From IMG/VR virus record IMGVR_UViG_3300042894_007218: a DNA stretch of 46,145 bases. One strand, written 5' to 3'. Numbering within the stretch: the stretch's first letter is position 1; each line of letters starts with the position of its first letter. This DNA is from an uncultured virus (IMG/VR IMGVR_UViG_3300042894_007218) (Duplodnaviria > Heunggongvirae > Uroviricota > Caudoviricetes). The notes below the pieces were generated by a model that worked only from the letters and a program-made list of their open reading frames with translations, did no database searches and was not told the origin of the DNA. The translations under genes were made by a program, and so were the position numbers. Positions 1,571 to 39,376 of the stretch are shown here, piece by piece.

Positions 1571-4417
1571 TTATACTTTTGGTTTTTCAACAATAAATTC
1601 ACCATTAATATCATATAAACCACTACTTAAGATATAGTCATCGTGTCTTTCGCCAATTACTAACCAGGATATTTCATCAGATGAATTCGAATTAATACAG
1701 TTTATTTGTAGTTTATTTCCAATTACGATGCCTTTTACTGCATCCCATCCAGTCTCATTTGAGGTGAAACATTGGAAGTTTTTATTTAATGCAAGTAATG
1801 TACCTTCTGTCATATTAAATTGCTCATCTAAATTAATTTCAATAAATCCATTTACTAACTGTGATTTACCTCTGTATATGTTATTTGCCTGTGGTGCTTC
1901 TACAAAAGAGTGTAATAAAGTATGTGTTTCTTTTAGTTGTGGAAGAGGGTGGTCAATTTGAAATGTACCCGCTGCCTTTGAAAGTGTTCCATTAACTCTC
2001 AAATTATATGCTGTATATATACCACTTCCGCCCACTGTTGGTACTGTTCCGGAACCACCTGTCATATAAAATCTTATTTGGTCATTTTCGGAAATATCAC
2101 CAAATGTCAATAAGCCATCACCATCATCTCTTAAATTAAAATATGATCTGGTAGATGTTAGCATCTCAAAATAAGTTGGGTATTGAGTAATACTTGATGT
2201 TCCTGCTGTTATTGTTCCTGAATTATTGAATTTAATTTCTGAGCCGTTAGAGTTGGTTGTAAATTCAATATTTTTTTCACCGGTTGTATAGCCAAATTCT
2301 GCTATAGTACTTGTTCCTTGTATTCTTAAAAAGTTACCTCTTAGTGCAGTCGCAGATGCTGTTCCTACAACGGTAAAGTCATATGTAGGTGTATTTGTTT
2401 TTATACCAACTCTGTCTGTTGAAGCATCAGCAAAGAATAAATTCGCATTAGTATCTCCGCCAATTCTAAAGTCAGTGTTCGCGTCACCTGAGTTATTAAA
2501 TACCGAAGTTCCACTTTCGACAACTATTCCATAGTTTATATTTCCTCCTGTTGTAGTAACTTTTAATCCATAATTGGTTCCAGTAGTCGATGTGGTTGTG
2601 ACTGCTGAAATTGCATAATTATCACCTGAGGCAGTTCCGTTAGTATTTTGACTTACTAATGTATAAGCATGAGTTGTTTGTGTGTTTGATATTGAGAATT
2701 TTGCATTTGATGAATATCCACCAACTCCTGCCACATTAGTTGATGCTTGTGTTGATAAAAGATTTCCATCTAATGTTCCTTCAATTCTGAAATCATTACT
2801 ACCATTTGAATTATTAAATATGGCAGATCCTCTAACGTCTAATGTTGCCAGTGGTGTGTTTGTTCCAATACCAATACTATCAGTTGACGCATCAGCAAAG
2901 AATAAATTCGCATCAGTATCTCCTTCTATTCTAAAGTCTGTGTTTGCATCACCTGCTTCATTGAATATTGATGTTCCGGTATTTACAACAACTCCATAAT
3001 TGATTGAAGATCCACTTGTTTGTACAAAAAGTCCATAGTTTGCTGATGATTGAGTTGATGAAACTAAACTAAGAAGACCATAAGATGATGAAGTTGTTTT
3101 TGAACTATTATTGAAATAACCAGCATAAGAAGGATCTGTTGTATTTGCTGCTGTTGTTGCAACCCATGCAAAAACAGCTTTGTCTCCTGTTGAATAAACT
3201 GGCCCATTGCCAACTACGGCCCAAAGTGCATTATTTGCAAAGCTTCCGTTATTTACTTGTGTATAAAGACCTGTATTAGTTGAAGCGTTCCCTAAATTAG
3301 AGATATAAGATCCCCAGTTATTGGTACCAAACGTATCATTACTTACTCCTGTTCCAATTGTTACATAATTACCATAATAGCTACCTGCTGTGCCAGATGT
3401 TATTGTTGTATACATTCCGTAGGTTGTTGTAGATAATGTTAAAGTGGTGTAGACACCATAACTATTTGTGTTACTACCAGTATTTCTCGCATAGATTGCG
3501 AAAGTAGTACTGGCTGTTGATGTGCCGATGTTTCCAAGAACTCCGACATCACCACTTCCAAAACCAATAGAGGATCCAATATTTCCACTGATTGCTATGC
3601 TGTAAGTACCGCTTGAAATTTCAGAATGTATACCTGTTCTTATAGTTGTATTATTTTTTCTGATATACAACTGAGTATCGGAAGATGAAAGAGTTGTACC
3701 AATAAAAACATTTGTTCCGTTATCATAAATAAGTGAATTTGTCAAATCTGTAGAAGATGACCATTTTGGTAAATAATTTGTTGTTCCTGTACCTGTGACT
3801 ACTGAAGTTGGTATATCACTGACAAGTGCCATAGTTCCACCATTATTTGGCATTACAATTGACCAGTTTGCTGTTAATGTAGAAGTGAATAATCTCATTG
3901 TATATGAGCTACTTGTAAATCCAATGTAAGATGGGGTTGGTAAAATAATATTATTTACACCAGATGAATTTCCAACCGCTAAAACTTGAGATAGCGATGG
4001 TGTTGTTCCGCCTACTTGCCAAGTTGCGTTACCAGAAGCATCGGATGTAAGAACATATCCAGATGTCGCACCATCTGTTATTGTTATGTTTGAAGTGGTA
4101 ATGCCACCAACTCTTAGATTAGAATATGAGTCAATATTTACAGAGCCTATTACTGTGTGGTCATCGTTTGTTCCAATAAGTGCGAAAGTGTCATTTGTTT
4201 CATCCCATATAAAAGCCTGAGTTAGACCAGTTCCTCTGGTAAACATAATTCCTTCATCTAATAAAGGAGCACCTGATTGGCTATGACCTAAAGCTATTAT
4301 AGTATCTGATACAACTAAACTTGTTGTATAAATCGAAGAAGCAGATCCTAATATTGAAAAAGAACCTGTTACTAACAAATCACCCCATATTTCCGAACTT
4401 CCGTATATTTTTGGCAT
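1571..4417 (-). CDS. virion fibre/structural protein with internal repeats
   Basis: 948 aa, S/T/G-rich; three 'DFRIxG..DxNL' repeats; C-terminal FQIDHPL...HSFVEAP domain. Confidence 0.7.
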   Translation of the reverse strand: MPKIYGSSEIWGDLLVTGSFSILGSASSIYTTSLVVSDTIIALGHSQSGAPLLDEGIMFTRGTGLTQAFIWDETNDTFALIGTNDDHTVIGSVNIDSYSNLRVGGITTSNITITDGATSGYVLTSDASGNATWQVGGTTPSLSQVLAVGNSSGVNNIILPTPSYIGFTSSSYTMRLFTSTLTANWSIVMPNNGGTMALVSDIPTSVVTGTGTTNYLPKWSSSTDLTNSLIYDNGTNVFIGTTLSSSDTQLYIRKNNTTIRTGIHSEISSGTYSIAISGNIGSSIGFGSGDVGVLGNIGTSTASTTFAIYARNTGSNTNSYGVYTTLTLSTTTYGMYTTITSGTAGSYYGNYVTIGTGVSNDTFGTNNWGSYISNLGNASTNTGLYTQVNNGSFANNALWAVVGNGPVYSTGDKAVFAWVATTAANTTDPSYAGYFNNSSKTTSSSYGLLSLVSSTQSSANYGLFVQTSGSSINYGVVVNTGTSIFNEAGDANTDFRIEGDTDANLFFADASTDSIGIGTNTPLATLDVRGSAIFNNSNGSNDFRIEGTLDGNLLSTQASTNVAGVGGYSSNAKFSISNTQTTHAYTLVSQNTNGTASGDNYAISAVTTTSTTGTNYGLKVTTTGGNINYGIVVESGTSVFNNSGDANTDFRIGGDTNANLFFADASTDRVGIKTNTPTYDFTVVGTASATALRGNFLRIQGTSTIAEFGYTTGEKNIEFTTNSNGSEIKFNNSGTITAGTSSITQYPTYFEMLTSTRSYFNLRDDGDGLLTFGDISENDQIRFYMTGGSGTVPTVGGSGIYTAYNLRVNGTLSKAAGTFQIDHPLPQLKETHTLLHSFVEAPQANNIYRGKSQLVNGFIEINLDEQFNMTEGTLLALNKNFQCFTSNETGWDAVKGIVIGNKLQINCINSNSSDEISWLVIGERHDDYILSSGLYDINGEFIVEKPKV

Positions 4418-8685: not shown

Positions 8686-8769
8686 TAAAAGTATATATTA
8701 ATTGAAAAAATTCTTTAATTTATAAGAAAAGAGAAAACTTTTTTATATATACACATACAATTAGAACAT

Positions 8770-8842
<73 letters not shown>

Positions 8843-8861
8843 CTAAAAAAATTAAAAAAGT

Positions 8862-8933
8862 ATGAATAAATTAGCAACATATTATTACGAAGCCGAGGGT
8901 TTAAACCCAGTCGGACGAGTTTGTGTGTTGTAA
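8862..8933 (+). CDS. attenuator leader peptide 2 (MNKLATYYYEAEGLNPVGRVCVL)
   Basis: YYYEAE run precedes tRNA-Glu and tRNA-Tyr; antiterminator 8910-8924. Confidence 0.85.
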   Translation: MNKLATYYYEAEGLNPVGRVCVL

Positions 8934-8952
8934 CGATTTGATTACTTTAAAC

Positions 8953-8984
8953 AAACCCAGTCCGATTTTGGTCTGGGTTTTTTT
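8953..8984 (+). terminator. intrinsic terminator (attenuator 2)
   Basis: AAACCCAG..CCGA/TTGG..CTGGGTTT plus T-run. Confidence 0.85.
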
Positions 8985-9007
8985 ATTTTAAAAATATTTT
9001 AAAAAGA

Positions 9008-9039
9008 TTTGGTGTATTTGAAAAGTTACCTTATCTTTG
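9008..9039 (+). promoter_or_regulatory. Bacteroidota-type promoter between attenuator 2 and tRNA-Glu
   Basis: TTTG-N20-TATCTTTG. Confidence 0.7.
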
Positions 9040-9094
9040 TAAAACAAAAGAGGTAAATATAAATCCAAGTAACCCCTTGGTTTTTTACTAACTT

Positions 9095-9166
9095 GGTCCC
9101 ATCGTCTAACGGTTAGGACGTTAGGTTTTCATCCTAGAAATCGGAGTTCGATTCTCCGTGGGACTA
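9095..9166 (+). tRNA. tRNA-Glu(TTC)
   Basis: ttagg TT TTC AT cctag. Confidence 0.95.
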
Positions 9167-9177
9167 CAAAATTTATT

Positions 9178-9258
9178 GGAAGGTGGCAGAGTGGTTAAAT
9201 GCGGCAGACTGTAAATCTGCTCTCTTACGAGTACGGGGGTTCGAATCCCTCCCTTCCA
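9178..9258 (+). tRNA. tRNA-Tyr(GTA)
   Basis: gcaga CT GTA AA tctgc; long variable arm. Confidence 0.95.
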
Positions 9259-9314
9259 ACAAAATTTAAAAGAGGAAATAAACTTTTTATATATAATAAC
9301 ATAAAATAGAAACA

Positions 9315-9398
9315 ATGAAAAATTTAACTAACATAGGGGCAGTAATTATAGCGATAGGCGCGGGGCGTTTTATCGATAGACTGAGTTATGTTATGTAA
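9315..9398 (+). CDS. attenuator leader peptide 3 (MKNLTNIGAVIIAIGAGRFIDRLSYVM)
   Basis: ATA x3, GGG x2, GGC, GCA, GCG x2 precede Ile(TAT)/Ala/Gly tRNAs; antiterminator 9378-9387. Confidence 0.85.
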   Translation: MKNLTNIGAVIIAIGAGRFIDRLSYVM

Positions 9399-9419
9399 AT
9401 TTTGACTTTACATATATTT

Positions 9420-9451
9420 AAAACCCAGTCTCGAAAAGACTGGGTTTTTTT
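9420..9451 (+). terminator. intrinsic terminator (attenuator 3)
   Basis: AAAACCCAGTCT/AGACTGGGTTTT plus T-run. Confidence 0.9.
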
Positions 9452-9455
9452 ATTT

Positions 9456-9536
9456 CGGCAAGTACCGTTGGTGTCTTATACACACTATACACGTAGCGGG
9501 AAGTTGAAAACGTGGGTTCGAATCCCACCTTGCCGA
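9456..9536 (+). tRNA. atypical tRNA-Ile(TAT)-like RNA lacking a canonical D-arm
   Basis: Acceptor cggcaag/cttgccg; T-arm gtggg TTCGAAT cccac; gtgt CT TAT AC acac. Confidence 0.6.
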
Positions 9537-9542
9537 CAAATT

Positions 9543-9616
9543 GGGCCATTGGTGAAGAAGGCTATCATACCTGGTTTGCACCCAGGAGTCACGAGTTCGA
9601 GGCTCGTATGTGTCCA
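9543..9616 (+). tRNA. tRNA-Ala(TGC)
   Basis: cctgg TT TGC AC ccagg; G3:U70 present; 1-nt bulge in acceptor. Confidence 0.85.
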
Positions 9617-14125: not shown

Positions 14126-14183
14126 TATAAAATAATGACAAAAAATTAAAAAGAAAGATTTAACTTTCAATATATACAAAACA

Positions 14184-15668: not shown

Positions 15669-16238
15669 CTATCTTAGTATTGTAACGTGACCGGTTATTA
15701 GTTTTTTTCCATCATCGTCAATCATATCTAATTTCATTATCCAAGAATATGTTCCATCCGGAACTAAAACGCCATTGTATGTACCATCCCATTTTGAATT
15801 AACATCATGTGATTGCCATATAATTGCACCCCATCTATTGTATATTGTTAATTCAAAATTATCAGTAGATATACCACTTGTTAATACCGGTCCCCACATT
15901 TGATTGAATTCATTTCCATCTGGTGTAAATGAATTAGGAACCCAAAATATTAACGGATCACATTGAGTTACAATAACGTCTAAGACTTGTGGATTTCCAG
16001 GACATCCTATATCATTATAACCAATTGCAACTATTTGATATTCTCCTGGTTCATCATAAGTAATACTAATATCTAATCCATTACCAATTTGAGAACCATT
16101 TAGAAACCATGTTACAGTACCATTTACATCAATGGTTGTTGTATATGTAAAAGTGTTTGGTTCTTCACATATCTCAAACTCCTGTTGAGCATGGTATCTA
16201 AATGTTAATAGTAAAAATAATATTAATATAACTCTCAT
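15669..16238 (-). CDS. secreted protein with T9SS type B (gliding-motility-associated) C-terminal domain
   Basis: Signal peptide; VPNSFTPDGN..., IYNRWG, WDGTYNG, DGTY motifs. Confidence 0.9.
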   Translation of the reverse strand: MRVILILFLLLTFRYHAQQEFEICEEPNTFTYTTTIDVNGTVTWFLNGSQIGNGLDISITYDEPGEYQIVAIGYNDIGCPGNPQVLDVIVTQCDPLIFWVPNSFTPDGNEFNQMWGPVLTSGISTDNFELTIYNRWGAIIWQSHDVNSKWDGTYNGVLVPDGTYSWIMKLDMIDDDGKKLITGHVTILR

Positions 16239-16825: not shown

Positions 16826-17878
16826 TTAGTTGTGGCTAATTGGGCCTAAAACTATTTGAGGTGGTTGTGTTATAGTGACACTTCCAGTAGCTGTACATCC
16901 GTTTAGATTAACAGTTACTGTATATGTTCCTGGACAAAGATTACTTATTGATTGAGTTGTTGCACCATTTGACCATAGATATGTCGCTCCTGGGTAATTG
17001 GCATTTGCTGTTCCATTACAAAGACCAAAACAAGTTACATTTGTAAATGTTGGATTAACTACAATATTAACAGGTGTCCAAGTTATTGTAGCATAACCAT
17101 TGCCTGAATTATTTGAAGCAAGACAAGTTCCACCCGGTGGCACCAACGATGATCCTCCGCCGCCTCCGCCGCCTCCATTAGACCCGGTGCAACAACCGTC
17201 GTTTCCACCACCGCCTCCGCCATAGTATCCACCACCACCGCCTCCACCAGAAGCGGTTTGCCAAAATCCACCATTACCACCTTGGTTTAATGTTCCTGTT
17301 TGTCCACCAGGGGGAGTTCCTGCCCAGGGGGCGCCTCCTAATCCACCAGCTACTTGAGTACCTCCACCTCCACCTGCACCGAACGTTGATGTACCTGGTG
17401 CGCCGTTTGTGCAGTTAGCTGGTCCGCCTGCAACTGAATTTGATCCTCCACTTTTTCCACCACCTCCGCCACCAACAATTACTCTGTTTGCAAGTGCAGT
17501 TCCACCAATTCTAATATCAGTTGCGCCACCACCACCACAAGAGTTGTAAGCCACATTTGCTGGATTAGAGGCATAACCTGTGCCACCGCCATTCCATCCA
17601 CCTGAATTATTTCCACAGGAACCTTGGCCACCTACATAGATATTTAAAGTTTGACCTGGTGTGACATTAAGTGTTGCTGAAATTCTAGCACCGTTTCCGC
17701 CATTTGCGCCGCCACCTTTAGCCCCAGCGACAACAACATTTATAGAAGTAACACACGGTGGTACTACCCAAGTTTGTAACGATCCGGTATAGTTAAAGTT
17801 AACAGTTTGAGTTTGTGAATATAAATAGTTGAATATAGAACTCAGAAACAATAAAGTTAGTAATCTAAGTTTAATCAT
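16826..17878 (-). CDS. secreted glycine-rich domain protein with SprB-like repeat
   Basis: FNYTGSLQTWVVP, GGGGATDIR, poly-G tracts; YLWSNGATTQSISNLCPGTYTVTV; ends PISHN. Confidence 0.85.
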   Translation of the reverse strand: MIKLRLLTLLFLSSIFNYLYSQTQTVNFNYTGSLQTWVVPPCVTSINVVVAGAKGGGANGGNGARISATLNVTPGQTLNIYVGGQGSCGNNSGGWNGGGTGYASNPANVAYNSCGGGGATDIRIGGTALANRVIVGGGGGGKSGGSNSVAGGPANCTNGAPGTSTFGAGGGGGTQVAGGLGGAPWAGTPPGGQTGTLNQGGNGGFWQTASGGGGGGGYYGGGGGGNDGCCTGSNGGGGGGGGSSLVPPGGTCLASNNSGNGYATITWTPVNIVVNPTFTNVTCFGLCNGTANANYPGATYLWSNGATTQSISNLCPGTYTVTVNLNGCTATGSVTITQPPQIVLGPISHN

Positions 17879-20331
17879 TTAATTTCAAATTTTCTTATTG
17901 TAGTGGTCAATTTTTCGTTTACTACATATATATAATACATTCCAGATGATTTTTGTAAATTATCTACAAAAAATGCATTTATTCCTGGTTTTATTTCTAA
18001 ATCTTTATTTAATACTTCAGAGCCTTTTGTGTCTTTAATAATTAACTTTGAAGTTCCTACTAAATTTATATCATTTATTATGACTTGAAATTCACCTGAA
18101 GTCGGATTTGGAAATACTGAGAAATAACCTTCTGAACTAACACTACAATTTACATTGATTGGTCCATATTCTTTTGACTTACCATCTATATCAATTTGTA
18201 AAAGTTTATAGTAATTATTACCAGAAATTATATTTTCGTCTAAAACTGTATAAGATAGTTCTTGTGTTGAGTTACCTGCTGAACTAATACTTGTAAGTGT
18301 AGACCAATTCACACCATCTCTAGATTTCATAACTTTAAAGTAATCTGAATTATGTTCTGTTGCTGTTTTCCAATCTAATGTTACTGAACCATCTTTGCAA
18401 TTACCTTCAAAACTTAATAATTCTACTGGTAATGCTCCGTTTGTAATAATATTAAAAAATCTAACTTGAGTTCCGCAATTAGTAGAATTTGAGACCGTAA
18501 CTCTAACCGATCCATCTGTTGTTGTTTGAGGCCAATAAAACGATATTGATGGTGTATTTGAGTTTGGTATGTTTGTCCAAAATGGTGCTGTTATTGATTG
18601 TGTGTAAGCCCACTGATAAGTTGAATTTGCAACTGGTGTTATTGAATATGTCTCCTGTGTTCCTGCAATTATTGTGTTGTTTCCTGATACCGTTGAAACA
18701 AATCCGACTGATGGATTTACTGATATAGTTGTAGAAGTTGAATTTGAACATCCATTTGAACTAACAGATAATTGATATAATTGTGTTGATGTTGGTGATG
18801 CAAATGGACTTGGAGCCGATGGATTTGTTAATCCTGTTGATGGTGTCCAATTATATGTTATTGGTGATCCAGCAGGAAGACCTGTCACAGAACTAACTAA
18901 TTGAGTATTGGTTCCTGAACAAATAGTATTACTTACTGAAGAAACAGAAACATTTGGTGTTGGATTTACCGTGATGAACGTAGAAGCACATCCTGAACTA
19001 AATTGACTTCCGTTGAAGTTTCTTGCAAAATATGTTGTTGTGGTTGTTGGTGAAACACTGATAGAATTTCCAAATCCAATTTGAGTTATTCCACATCCAT
19101 TTACATACCAATAAACTGTACCAGATACACCATTAGCAGTTAATGTTGTTGATTGACCATTACACAAAATATTTTGAGTTGTAGAAATTGATGTGGGATT
19201 TGGTGGAGGTGGTGTAGCACAAGTTAAACCAATTGAAAATGGACTTGTACTACTATATCCATGAACTAATATGTAATAGTTTACACCTGGTGCGCCATAC
19301 CAACTATAAGACGCTGATGATGTAGAACAAACAGGACCCCAATCATCATTTCCACCAATACAAGTTAGTGATGAGCAATTAGGACCACTAAATACTGATA
19401 TTTTACTATCCCATGCTGTCGCACATAAGTTAGCAGTCATGTTTTGTCCGTTCCCTGCTACCACATACCAAACACCACCAGTTGTTTGACTAACACCACA
19501 AAAACCACCCATTTCACCTGTTCCTGTGTTTGTGGAGTTTACGGTCGTTCCAGCAATTGTTTGTCCACATACTATTGGTGTTGCATTACAGACTAAATCA
19601 TTTGATGGTGCTGCGGGAGCTGAACAGGAAAGACATTCAATTGTTGAAGTTCCACAGGATGATGCGGTTCCACAAGATGAGTTTGTGTTATAATGAATAT
19701 AATATGTTCCTGAAATCGGTGCCGTCCAAGTTAATGGTGAAAAACCTGCAGCAACTACCGTTCCATTATAAGATGTGTGTCTAACGGTGATATAACCTCC
19801 TAAATTATATGTCGATCTATATTGCCTACCTGAAACTACACTAAAAATAGTATTATATTCTGATTGGAATGTGCAAGAACTTATGGTTTGTAAACCTGGA
19901 ACTGATGGTGCTGTTAATGACCCATAAGCATATAGGTTTACACAACCTCCACCACCACCACCTGAACAACTACCAATACAAGTATGTCCTCCAAATGTTG
20001 AACCTCCAGTAGTTGGTTGTGTGGTATTTAAGAGAATTGTTCCTGTATTATTTCTAATTTGAACTCTCATTTCAGATGGATATATTCCTGCAGTTGTTCT
20101 CCATACTCTAATCGTTTGTCCCGATGATGCGGTAAAGTTAAATATTGCTGGTCCTAATCCTGAATTAAGTGTTATGTTGGTCAATACCGTTAGTCCATTG
20201 ACTGAAACTGATACAGCACCACCATTCCATCCATCACCCCAAGTGTCTGTAAGATATATTTGATGAGTGCAAGACTGTGAAAAAAAATATGATGACAAAA
20301 ACGTAAACAAAAAAATTAATAAGTTCTTCAT
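17875..20331 (-). CDS. large secreted multi-domain protein with T9SS type A C-terminal sorting domain
   Basis: Signal peptide; DTWGDGWNG, Ig-like repeats, LPVELLSF, VFPNPTSG...GMYYI tail. Confidence 0.9.
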   Translation of the reverse strand: MKNLLIFLFTFLSSYFFSQSCTHQIYLTDTWGDGWNGGAVSVSVNGLTVLTNITLNSGLGPAIFNFTASSGQTIRVWRTTAGIYPSEMRVQIRNNTGTILLNTTQPTTGGSTFGGHTCIGSCSGGGGGGCVNLYAYGSLTAPSVPGLQTISSCTFQSEYNTIFSVVSGRQYRSTYNLGGYITVRHTSYNGTVVAAGFSPLTWTAPISGTYYIHYNTNSSCGTASSCGTSTIECLSCSAPAAPSNDLVCNATPIVCGQTIAGTTVNSTNTGTGEMGGFCGVSQTTGGVWYVVAGNGQNMTANLCATAWDSKISVFSGPNCSSLTCIGGNDDWGPVCSTSSASYSWYGAPGVNYYILVHGYSSTSPFSIGLTCATPPPPNPTSISTTQNILCNGQSTTLTANGVSGTVYWYVNGCGITQIGFGNSISVSPTTTTTYFARNFNGSQFSSGCASTFITVNPTPNVSVSSVSNTICSGTNTQLVSSVTGLPAGSPITYNWTPSTGLTNPSAPSPFASPTSTQLYQLSVSSNGCSNSTSTTISVNPSVGFVSTVSGNNTIIAGTQETYSITPVANSTYQWAYTQSITAPFWTNIPNSNTPSISFYWPQTTTDGSVRVTVSNSTNCGTQVRFFNIITNGALPVELLSFEGNCKDGSVTLDWKTATEHNSDYFKVMKSRDGVNWSTLTSISSAGNSTQELSYTVLDENIISGNNYYKLLQIDIDGKSKEYGPINVNCSVSSEGYFSVFPNPTSGEFQVIINDINLVGTSKLIIKDTKGSEVLNKDLEIKPGINAFFVDNLQKSSGMYYIYVVNEKLTTTIRKFEIK

Positions 20332-26933: not shown

Positions 26934-26981
26934 TATAGAAAATTGACAAATAGAGAAAAATAATTCAATATATAATTAACA

Positions 26982-36916: not shown

Positions 36917-37215
36917 TTTGGTGGATTTGAAATATTGCCTTATCTTTGTATTAACAAACGATGGGGAAGTTCCAGAGCGGCAAATGGAGTTACGTTGTAA
37001 CGTGACTGGTCTCAATAGATCTTCGTAGGTTCGAGTCCTAACCTTTCCCACAAAAAGATTTGGTAGATTGAAAAATTTTACTTATCTTTGTAAAACAAAT
37101 CAGAAACGTCTGATATAATTAAAAGTTCTTTGAAAAACGGTTTAGTACTAAACAAACTAAACCAAAAAAAAAGTAAAAAAAGATTTGGTCGAAATAAAAA
37201 AAGTTCATATCTTTG
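36917..37215 (+). promoter_or_regulatory. three tandem Bacteroidota-type promoters (36917-36948, 37059-37090, 37184-37215)
   Basis: TTTGG-start, N20 spacer, TATCTTTG in all three. Confidence 0.8.
36963..37050 (+). tRNA. tRNA-Tyr(GTA)-like with irregular anticodon loop
   Basis: Tyr-type D-arm and variable arm; gttacg TTGTAA cgtgac (6-nt loop). Confidence 0.6.
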
Positions 37216-37253: not shown

Positions 37254-37326
37254 CGCGGGATAGAGCAGTCGGTAGCTCGCAAGGCTCATAACCTTGAGGT
37301 CGTTGGTTCGAGTCCAGCTCCCGCTA
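37254..37326 (+). tRNA. tRNA-fMet(CAT), second type
   Basis: caagg CT CAT AA ccttg; C1:U72 mismatch. Confidence 0.9.
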
Positions 37327-37374: not shown

Positions 37375-38205
37375 ACAGTCGGTTTCGGCTGACTGTGAAA
37401 AGAAGGGCGGCTTATAGTCCTTAAAATAAACCGTGAAAGCGGGATAAAGTGAACAGAATAGCTAAATCTGTTTGCGTCTTGAACCCTCGGGTTTGAGGTC
37501 GAGTAAGCAAGTGGGATACCACAACTCCTTATTAATCGAGGGTAACACTGTAGATGAAATGGATTTGTGACCAGGCAATTGTAGATTGTTTGGTTGACTT
37601 CGGAAGAAGAATAGGAATAACCCATAGGTCTGTTGCGAGAAGTGTTGACTCACCGGTCTTCATCATTGCGGAGCCCAACTTAAGAGGTGTCTTAAAGTCG
37701 AAAGACAATCAGGTGTACGGGTGGTGCTGTTACTTGACACTCTTCTCTCTACCAGGAGAGTTGTTGTGGAGATATCTTAAAGAGTTGTGATGGAGGCATC
37801 ACACGGAGTAGTTCAGTATTCTTGAGGTCAAAAGCTTTGAGAGCTGAGAGGTAACCACTACTTCGACAAATCTACAAAGCACTAAATTTCACTATTAATG
37901 AAACATTTAAAAAGGAAATCGAAAGTGTTACCTAGTTACTGATGAAAGGTACCTACCCAGTCGTGAGTGTTCACGGCCACTGATGCTCGAAAGGCTGATG
38001 TGATTTCATCGAAAAGCTTATAGAGGGTCGAACCTCGAGTCAGCTCGCAAGGTTGAGTAAGTGGATTAAATGGAGAGTAATTAGTAACTTAAGGAGTGGT
38101 TAGTCTAACTAACCGGTACTGACAGAGTACTTCTCAAAAGGAAGTGGATAAGAAGGGAAACCATAATCTAACAAAAGTTCTGTCGTCAAAGGCGTAATCT
38201 CAGCC
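37375..38205 (+). ncRNA. large structured RNA, probably GOLLD
   Basis: About 830 nt, GC-richer, no credible ORF, many GNRA/UUCG-capped hairpins, flanked by tRNAs, ends in hairpin plus T-run. Confidence 0.65.
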
Positions 38206-38258
38206 TTTTTTGGTCGGTTCATAGGAACCTCTGAGAGCGAGACTCAGACCGACCTCAA

Positions 38259-39272: not shown

Positions 39273-39376
39273 GGTCCTTTAGCTCAGCAGGTTAGAGCAA
39301 CTGACTCTAAGTGTTATAAGTAAATTAACACAACAATATAATCAGTAGGTCCACGGTTCGAGCCCGTGAGGGACCA
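39273..39376 (+). tRNA. tRNA-Ile2-like gene interrupted by a 30-nt insertion in the anticodon loop
   Basis: Ile2-type body ggtccttTAGCTCAG...; actga CTC[30 nt]ATAA tcagt. Confidence 0.75.

Follow-up and report, generated by a model that had tools for sequence, protein, structure and literature searches.

A short region upstream of the tRNA-Glu and tRNA-Tyr genes in this A+T-rich, phage-like DNA (46,145 nt; hereafter the window, meaning the whole stretch of DNA that was analysed) most probably represents a ribosome-mediated, leader-peptide transcription attenuator of tRNA genes accompanied by a separate constitutive promoter, and from its sequence we put the probability of this reading at about 0.78. 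A preliminary description of the DNA had proposed such an attenuator, together with possible attenuator-independent expression of the Glu and Tyr tRNAs, and both proposals gain support here. The first is supported by the match between leader codons and downstream tRNAs, by alternative folds, by a positional logic that holds in 13 of 13 leaders, and by covariation, from all of which the function is predicted; the second is supported by the recurrence in relatives of a promoter whose activity is likewise predicted. Overall, the sequence and comparative evidence for a bivalent Tyr/Glu attenuator and a conserved promoter is strong. The features of the locus are listed in Table 1.

Table 1. Features of the Tyr/Glu tRNA locus and their coordinates in the window.
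Feature	Coordinates	Strand	Details
Motif AAAAGRG...CTTTTT(A)ATATATA upstream of tRNA-Met	about 8727-8751	+	Sole candidate promoter for the tRNA-Met and leader transcript
tRNA-Met(CAT)	8770-8843	+	ARAGORN and Rfam, 60.9 bits
Leader ORF	8862-8933	+	23 codons plus TAA stop (8931-8933); reads MNKLATYYYEAEGLNPVGRVCVL
Regulatory codons	8880-8897	+	Tyr7 Tyr8 Tyr9 Glu10 Ala11 Glu12 = TAT TAT TAC GAA GCC GAG
Segment 1:2 hairpin (anti-antiterminator)	8893-8914	+	8893-8900 with 8905-8908 and 8911-8914; in minimum-energy fold of 8862-8990
Segment 2, antiterminator 5' strand	8909-8924	+	Nascent fold
Segment 3	8951-8967	+	Pairs with segment 2 or, as terminator 5' arm, with segment 4
Intrinsic terminator	8953-8984	+	Stem 8953-8980 with one U.U mismatch; T-run 8978-8984
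Bacteroidota-type promoter	9008-9039	+	-33 TTTG, -7 TAtcTTTG; in front of tRNA-Glu and tRNA-Tyr
16-nt stem-loop CCAAGTAACCCCTTGG, then T6	9065-9086	+	Stem-loop 9065-9080
tRNA-Glu(TTC)	9095-9167	+	ARAGORN and Rfam, 60.7 bits
tRNA-Tyr(GTA)	9177-9260	+	ARAGORN and Rfam, 61.4 bits

The leader ORF starts 18 nt after the end of tRNA-Met, in agreement with the earlier remark that it follows tRNA-fMet directly, and no promoter is present between the tRNA gene and the ATG at 8862. As drawn by ARAGORN, the tRNA has T opposite T at 1:72 and an anticodon stem closed by three G-C pairs, and it is presumably initiator-like, a 1:72 mismatch and G-C pairs in the anticodon stem being features of initiator tRNAs. 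Tyr or Glu is specified by five of the six regulatory codons, and of the 266 small ORFs in the window (six frames, ATG start, 15-50 codons) none but the leader has at least five Tyr or Glu residues in six codons. Under standard wobble rules these Tyr and Glu codons are decoded by the tRNA-Tyr(GTA) and tRNA-Glu(TTC) encoded downstream, which are the only Glu and Tyr tRNA genes found by ARAGORN in the window. The leader is a translatable ORF located upstream of the genes it would regulate, and its translation is predicted.

In all five leaders of the window, the amino acids of the tRNAs encoded behind that leader are over-represented. One example is a leader with R/H/K/F/S residues that precedes Phe, Lys, His, Arg and Ser tRNAs; the others have G/A/I residues before Ala and Gly tRNAs, N/T/L/V/I/R residues before Asn, Arg, Val, Ile, Thr and Leu tRNAs, and Q/P/D residues before Asp, Pro and Gln tRNAs. 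When leaders are matched to tRNA clusters as they actually occur, the summed cognate fraction ranks first among the 120 permutations possible in the window, and it also ranks first among 5040 permutations in each of two related huge-phage genomes, the relatedness of all three meaning that these are not three independent tests. Relatives divide their tRNA clusters differently and the leaders track these divisions, such that where the Gln tRNAs are apart from Asp and Pro they have a leader of their own with a run of Gln codons.

The transcript region 8862-8990 has a minimum-energy fold of -38.6 kcal/mol (z -5.04), and none of 200 shuffles folds as well. The fold includes the 1:2 hairpin, whose 5' strand overlaps the Ala11 and Glu12 codons, and the prediction of a hairpin at 8893-8914 overlapping the Glu codon is thereby borne out. 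The terminator is also well defined (-16.3 kcal/mol, z -5.29, equalled in 0 of 200 shuffles); a simple terminator scan omitted it because the stem holds the internal U.U mismatch. For a nascent transcript of 8862-8968 the minimum-energy fold is an antiterminator consisting of two helices, 8909-8916/8960-8967 and 8919-8924/8951-8956. The antiterminator of the preliminary description, in which 8910-8924 pairs with 8951-8966, thus stands as a nascent fold, and requires amendment in that the conserved core is 8909-8916/8960-8967 and the other helix is lineage-specific. A search of 8700-9560 against Rfam at E values up to 1 returned solely tRNAs and chance-level matches, with no family besides tRNA at its gathering score here, and the T-box model has no match at gathering score, nor a convincing one at E up to 1.

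Folding with a masked ribosome, whose footprint was assumed to be A-site nucleotide 1 plus 12-14, shows how these structures depend on ribosome position. With the A site at Tyr7, Tyr8, Tyr9 or Glu10 the long-range antiterminator replaces the terminator in the minimum-energy fold; moving the A site on to Glu12 or the stop codon brings the terminator back. Nineteen attenuator units from the window and the two huge-phage genomes were analysed (21 terminator rows less two, namely a hairpin at 9061 that has no ORF and a stem of 7 bp within the L004 tRNA cluster), and this equilibrium switch is seen in four, including the Tyr/Glu attenuator. At equilibrium the terminator wins in 15 of the 19 units, but not in the Tyr/Glu attenuator of the window, and the switch must therefore be kinetic; because so few units switch at equilibrium we adopted nascent-transcript folds as a proxy, ending the transcript before the terminator 3' arm and reading the probability that the 5' arm is sequestered. 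Sequestration of the 5' arm persists at a probability of 0.5-0.9 as the ribosome advances, and drops once the A site has passed the last cognate codon by 1-4 codons; this is so in all 19 units and in 13 of 13 Tyr/Glu leaders. Before the drop 169 of 340 residues are cognate, compared with 36 of 182 after it (odds ratio 4.0), the p-value of 1e-11 not reflecting independent observations as the units are related. When the sequence upstream of the terminator arm is shuffled, 6 of 100 shuffles sequester the arm of the window's Tyr/Glu attenuator as well as the native sequence does; for all units, 11 of 19 are matched by at most 6 of 100 shuffles and the other eight are indistinguishable from shuffles (9-50 of 100). 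The modelled geometry fits an attenuator, in that a stall at the regulatory codons would free segment 2 and a ribosome at the stop codon would cover it.

A pattern scan of viral contigs identified 12 loci, two of which are without an ORF, and the ten real ones together with the window, L001 and L002 form a set of 13 Tyr/Glu loci; the contigs of three of the scan loci also carry loci L044, L053 and L077. The set contains 11 distinct leader peptides in diverged flanks, and the Tyr/Glu block is kept in all 13 loci while the remainder of the peptide varies. One example is L086, in which the YYYEAEG block is identical and seven of the 16 other leader residues differ from those of the window. In 12 of 13 loci a Glu or Tyr tRNA comes first behind the leader; L094, with Ile and Gly first, is the exception. 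Ten of the 13 have a tRNA-Met 92-236 nt upstream of the leader (ARAGORN), and in five (the window, L086, L089, L090 and L092) the leader directly follows tRNA-Met without an intervening promoter. A closer comparison is afforded by L077, which is near-identical to the window; from tRNA-Met to tRNA-Tyr the differences are confined to the terminator loop, one base just after the T-run, and the promoter spacer, with both boxes of the 9008-9039 promoter intact.

Covariation was evaluated in an alignment of 12 of the Tyr/Glu locus sequences. The terminator is paired in 95.5% of cells and the antiterminator core (columns 72-79/137-144) in 89.4%, with both-sided changes in four of its eight pairs. The helix 8919-8924/8951-8956 is paired in just 51% of cells, and we therefore regard it as lineage-specific. 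For both antiterminator helices together (14 pairs) 72.9% of cells are paired, compared with 26-40% when partners are slid; among 500 shuffled controls, the covariation score is reached in 8 and the paired percentage in 45. The most informative position is column 140 (8963), which in the antiterminator pairs as A-U in eight sequences, G-C in two and G.U in one, and in the terminator as U-A in nine, C-G in two and A-U in one. Position 8963 is C in the window and U in most sequences, and its partners 8913 and 8970 have both gone from A to G. A single base therefore covaries with both of its alternative partners (8913 in the antiterminator, 8970 in the terminator), and L086 has a G.U intermediate; because the window and L090 are near-identical, this three-way covariation counts as one evolutionary event. 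The 1:2 hairpin at 8893-8914 is also retained in L086, through a G-C to G.U change. Before segment 3 has been transcribed, part of segment 2 pairs with leader sequence further upstream in all 12 sequences, and this predicted upstream pairing is the anti-antiterminator, of which the 8893-8914 hairpin is the form in the window, L090 and L086.

We note that leaders of different phages can share an N-terminus, M-K-N-L-x-N-I, which is common to those of L017, L021, L025, L029, L037, L038, L043, L049, L050, L056 and L060, and that the regulatory blocks of these leaders differ and match different tRNA sets. A separate scan keyed solely on the shared N-terminus gave 48 viral loci, 13 of which have a leader, a terminator and tRNAs. 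For example, an F/W/H block is followed by His and Phe tRNAs, a Q/P/H block by those for Pro, His and Gln, and an L/A/T/E/G/D block by those for Thr, Leu, Glu, Asp, Gly and Ala. The other 35 loci have no leader-terminator-tRNA unit and were rejected, as they look like chance matches of an A+T-rich pattern. By sequence, the shared N-terminus points either to descent of these leaders from one ancestor or to constrained first codons.

Sigma-A promoters of the Bacteroidota have a -33 TTTG element about 19-21 nt upstream of the -7 box. The -7 box consensus for Flavobacterium and Bacteroides is TAnnTTTG (PMC7641319). The preliminary description had placed a host-type promoter at 9008-9039, between the terminator and tRNA-Glu, and the assignment holds: the site matches the Bacteroidota sigma-A pattern in its -7 box, its -33 element and their spacing, and it recurs in relatives. 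There are 15 matches to TTTG-N18-22-TAnnTTTG in the window, including this one, compared with 3.2 +/- 1.9 expected, and 0 of 100 shuffles reach 15. The promoter has relatives elsewhere in the window, all 32-nt sites of the form TTTGGT...TTATCTTTG, and one of these is directly before the second tRNA-Met. Sigma-70-type promoters were also considered and rejected, with a scan finding 65 compared with 79 in shuffles, and this model does not fit the window DNA. The earlier observation that the locus is unlike the other four also proves correct, as the gap between terminator and first tRNA is 8-21 nt in those four and 110 nt, with the promoter, here.

A like promoter is directly before the Glu(-Tyr) pair in six of the 13 loci. 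In the window, L090 and L086 it comes next after the terminator, and in L087 and L093 it lies behind attenuator-controlled copies of Glu and Tyr; L094 has one too. The window tRNA-Tyr is closest to the distal, promoter-driven Tyr of L053, and tRNA-Glu is closest to the distal Glu of L001 (0.88 identity in each case). Judged by its predicted promoter and its distribution, the promoter-driven Glu-Tyr pair is a recurrent module, in the window's lineage the sole thing behind the attenuator, and it looks like an older module. Leader 3, at 9315, is without a host-type promoter of its own in the window, and promoter 9008-9039 therefore probably feeds this leader too.

Within the window there is no host-type (TTTG/TAnnTTTG) promoter upstream of tRNA-Met and the leader. 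The candidate motif at this position (Table 1) holds an AAAAG/CTTTT inverted repeat, and in the window it is almost confined to tRNA units, being found before four of the five leaders (788-814, 8728-8751, 9269-9295 and 14150-14176, with a variant near 26955) and before tRNA-Met. L001-L012, L053 and L077 have it as well, before tRNA-Met in the case of L001, L053 and L077. Possible roles for the motif are those of a phage-specific promoter and of an element in the 5' UTR.

The events predicted from these elements, namely initiation at the promoters given above, ribosome stalling and conditional read-through, would combine as follows. The leader would be co-transcribed with tRNA-Met, as no promoter separates them. 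If charged tRNA-Tyr or tRNA-Glu were scarce, a ribosome would stall at Tyr7-Glu10 and cover segment 1 (8893-8900), segment 2 would pair with segment 3 before the terminator 3' arm is made, and with the antiterminator formed RNA polymerase would cross the promoter region into tRNA-Glu and tRNA-Tyr. If these tRNAs were plentiful, the ribosome would reach the stop codon and cover segment 2, and the terminator would form and end transcription. The 9008-9039 promoter would independently provide basal tRNA-Glu and tRNA-Tyr, and would probably serve the leader at 9315 as well. The phage probably keeps a basal supply of the two tRNAs in this way and makes more of them when ribosomes stall for their lack, and given a promoter downstream of the terminator, the attenuator's share of the Glu and Tyr levels could be small.

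Two other explanations of these elements were considered. The terminator is strong, the leader is not preceded by a host-type promoter, and a well-matched promoter is present between the terminator and the Glu and Tyr tRNAs, all of which would suit a terminator that merely ends the tRNA-Met unit, with an ORF that is untranslated or irrelevant and with Glu and Tyr expressed only from 9008-9039. We regard this as improbable, as the Tyr/Glu block is kept in 11 distinct leaders whose other residues differ (including L086, with its block unchanged beside seven substitutions) and Glu or Tyr tRNAs come next in 12 of 13 loci, antiterminator and terminator covary, and the drop in sequestration tracks the last Tyr or Glu codon in each of the 13 leaders. 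Alternatively, the attenuator could be a relic of an ancestor with Glu and Tyr directly behind the terminator, as in L087 and L093, and since their loss the promoter-driven pair would do all of the work. The arrangement in L087 and L093, where the promoter-driven pair sits behind attenuator-controlled copies, is in keeping with such a history, as is the similarity of the window's tRNA-Tyr and tRNA-Glu to the distal genes of L053 and L001, a comparison of pairwise identities that would fit either loss of the proximal copies here or their gain elsewhere. However, the window, L090 and L086, which are diverged members of one lineage, all three retain an intact leader, 1:2 hairpin, antiterminator and terminator, wobble and compensatory changes preserve the pairs in them, and read-through would still enter Glu-Tyr with only a weak hairpin intervening; there is little likelihood that the attenuator is such a relic, and a functioning attenuator with a separate promoter is the reading we prefer.

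The intervening hairpin is the small CCAAG/CTTGG-T6 structure of the preliminary description, and it is present at 9065-9086 as described; its role is where the evidence departs from the appearance of a terminator. It was listed by the terminator scan, and with a 5-bp stem, three G-C pairs and the T6 it could be taken for a further terminator or attenuator, a weak one, that acts on RNA started at the 9008 promoter. The stem-loop is the only copy of its 16-mer in the window, even with three mismatches allowed, and the idea that it is a repeated promoter or other repeat was rejected on this basis. An identical 16-mer is 9-14 nt upstream of a tRNA gene in eight of 23 viral loci (L063, L064, L068, L070, L072, L077, L078 and L079); the tRNA is Tyr in four, Ile(TAT) in three, and Glu in L077, and the tRNA clusters are otherwise different. 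The other 15 loci have no tRNA within 900 nt, are mostly inside apparent coding regions, and were set aside as chance matches. In L001 the 16-mer (4202-4217) is after a promoter and before the next leader. A T-run directly follows the 16-mer only in the window and in L077, one of the eight viral tRNA-linked copies, and is missing from the other seven and from L001. In L086 the hairpin itself is missing, and the promoter is 19 nt from tRNA-Glu. The fold is also weak (-5 kcal/mol), and 9 of 200 shuffles fold equally well. Because the hairpin is weak and other phages have no T-run beside the 16-mer, a second terminator at this position seems unlikely, and the hairpin is probably a conserved element of another kind; a recognition site for RNA or protein and a small inserted element are both possibilities.

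Leader-peptide attenuators are well known from amino-acid operons (trpL, hisL, pheL, leuL, and the multivalent thrL and ilvL), and also from pheST (pheM). The phage element is like the trpL/hisL type in having a short ORF, a block of regulatory codons and an intrinsic terminator, in its four segments with mutually exclusive 1:2/3:4 or 2:3 pairings, and in the placing of the codons such that a stalled ribosome would free segment 2 and a ribosome at the stop codon would cover it. Unlike attenuators of the trpL/pheM type, the regulated genes are those for tRNA-Glu and tRNA-Tyr rather than for biosynthetic enzymes or synthetases, and because they are tRNA genes the output would be the very molecule whose shortage is sensed, a direct feedback loop. 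It further differs from the classical attenuators in being phage-encoded, bivalent (Tyr and Glu) and presumably co-transcribed with an upstream tRNA-Met, and in having a putative constitutive promoter between the terminator and the regulated genes. The T-box riboswitches of Firmicutes, located in leaders of aminoacyl-tRNA synthetase and amino-acid genes, work without translation, through direct binding of uncharged tRNA. As in these, the status of a specific tRNA would be sensed and a terminator/antiterminator switched, but the phage locus, which has no Rfam T-box match, would sense it through a translated ORF with cognate codons.

It has long been asked why phages carry tRNAs and how the timing and dose of these are set; codon compensation and escape from tRNA-targeting defence are the current answers. 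In the excerpted text of PMC11555353, the tRNA-Tyr of T5-like phages, which has a strong promoter, counters retron-Eco7 PtuAB, a nuclease that degrades tRNA-Tyr. The locus described here similarly has a tRNA-Tyr gene behind a promoter of its own, for a tRNA that a host defence can destroy; it differs in that the T5-like tRNA-Tyr is constitutively and strongly expressed, and that excerpt (PMC11555353) mentions neither a leader ORF nor an attenuator. A link between the Tyr/Glu element and defence against tRNA-Tyr nucleases is speculation.

We found no paper on leader-peptide attenuation of tRNA genes in the full-text literature searched, subscription journals and supplements being outside its scope. 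As a tentative generalization, and one that we hold with well under even confidence, such elements may be closed-loop, codon-specific tRNA homeostats in which the ribosome is the sensor and the output is the sensed tRNA, here with a constitutive promoter setting a floor and a stall-triggered attenuator giving a boost; they might answer both tRNA-destroying host defences (e.g. tRNA-Tyr nucleases) and the phage's own codon demand without a protein regulator, and would be the first RNA genes under leader-peptide attenuation. If true, tRNA supply would be regulated by demand, one tRNA set at a time, and a textbook mechanism would be extended from enzyme genes to RNA genes. The locus suggests a two-input design, with a basal promoter and a stall-induced boost, that recurs in related phages. 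It offers a testable handle, in that changes of leader codons or depletion of single tRNAs can be compared with read-through, as well as compact, protein-free sensors of specific tRNA availability.

The closest public relatives of the window are the uncultured huge-phage genomes LR745206.1 (634,780 bp) and LR756502.1 (642,428 bp), and IMG/VR contigs of up to 476 kb are also among the closest. ORFs at 15669-16238 and 17875-20331 (both on the minus strand) have CHU_C and Por_Secre_tail sorting domains of type IX secretion; these and the TTTG/TAnnTTTG promoters point to a Bacteroidota host. The stretch, which we read as part of a large lake-water phage, is present in public DNA runs of lake-water metagenomes, and three RNA libraries contain small shares of it each, as contigs from which neither transcription nor its start and end points can be read. 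One of these contigs spans 9003-9170 with seven differences from the window, and another omits 9052-9091 and represents a relative without the small hairpin; the segment 8903-8969 is covered by no public run examined, DNA runs included.

ARAGORN identifies 23 tRNA genes in the window, and Rfam adds two more tRNAs and a GOLLD RNA. One of the additional tRNAs (9456-9536, plus strand; 35.6 bits) was missed by ARAGORN and has by eye a TAT anticodon loop (Ile, codon ATA); relatives carry a tRNA-Ile(TAT) at this position, and, again by eye, ATA occurs three times among the codons of leader 3, a short way upstream. The other (39273-39376, plus strand; 56.7 bits) is drawn by ARAGORN, when introns are allowed, with a 30-nt intron following position 37 and with the anticodon CTA, matching UAG; this tRNA may be an amber suppressor, a hint that the phage might recode stop codons. 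At 36917-37055 (plus strand) a host-type promoter (36917-36948) is followed by sequence that by eye ends like a tRNA T-arm and acceptor 3' strand, with no tRNA called there by ARAGORN or Rfam. The GOLLD RNA (37804-38206, plus strand) is a full-length match of 285.7 bits, and is near a tRNA-Met at 37254 and two tandem host-type promoters at 37059 and 37184.
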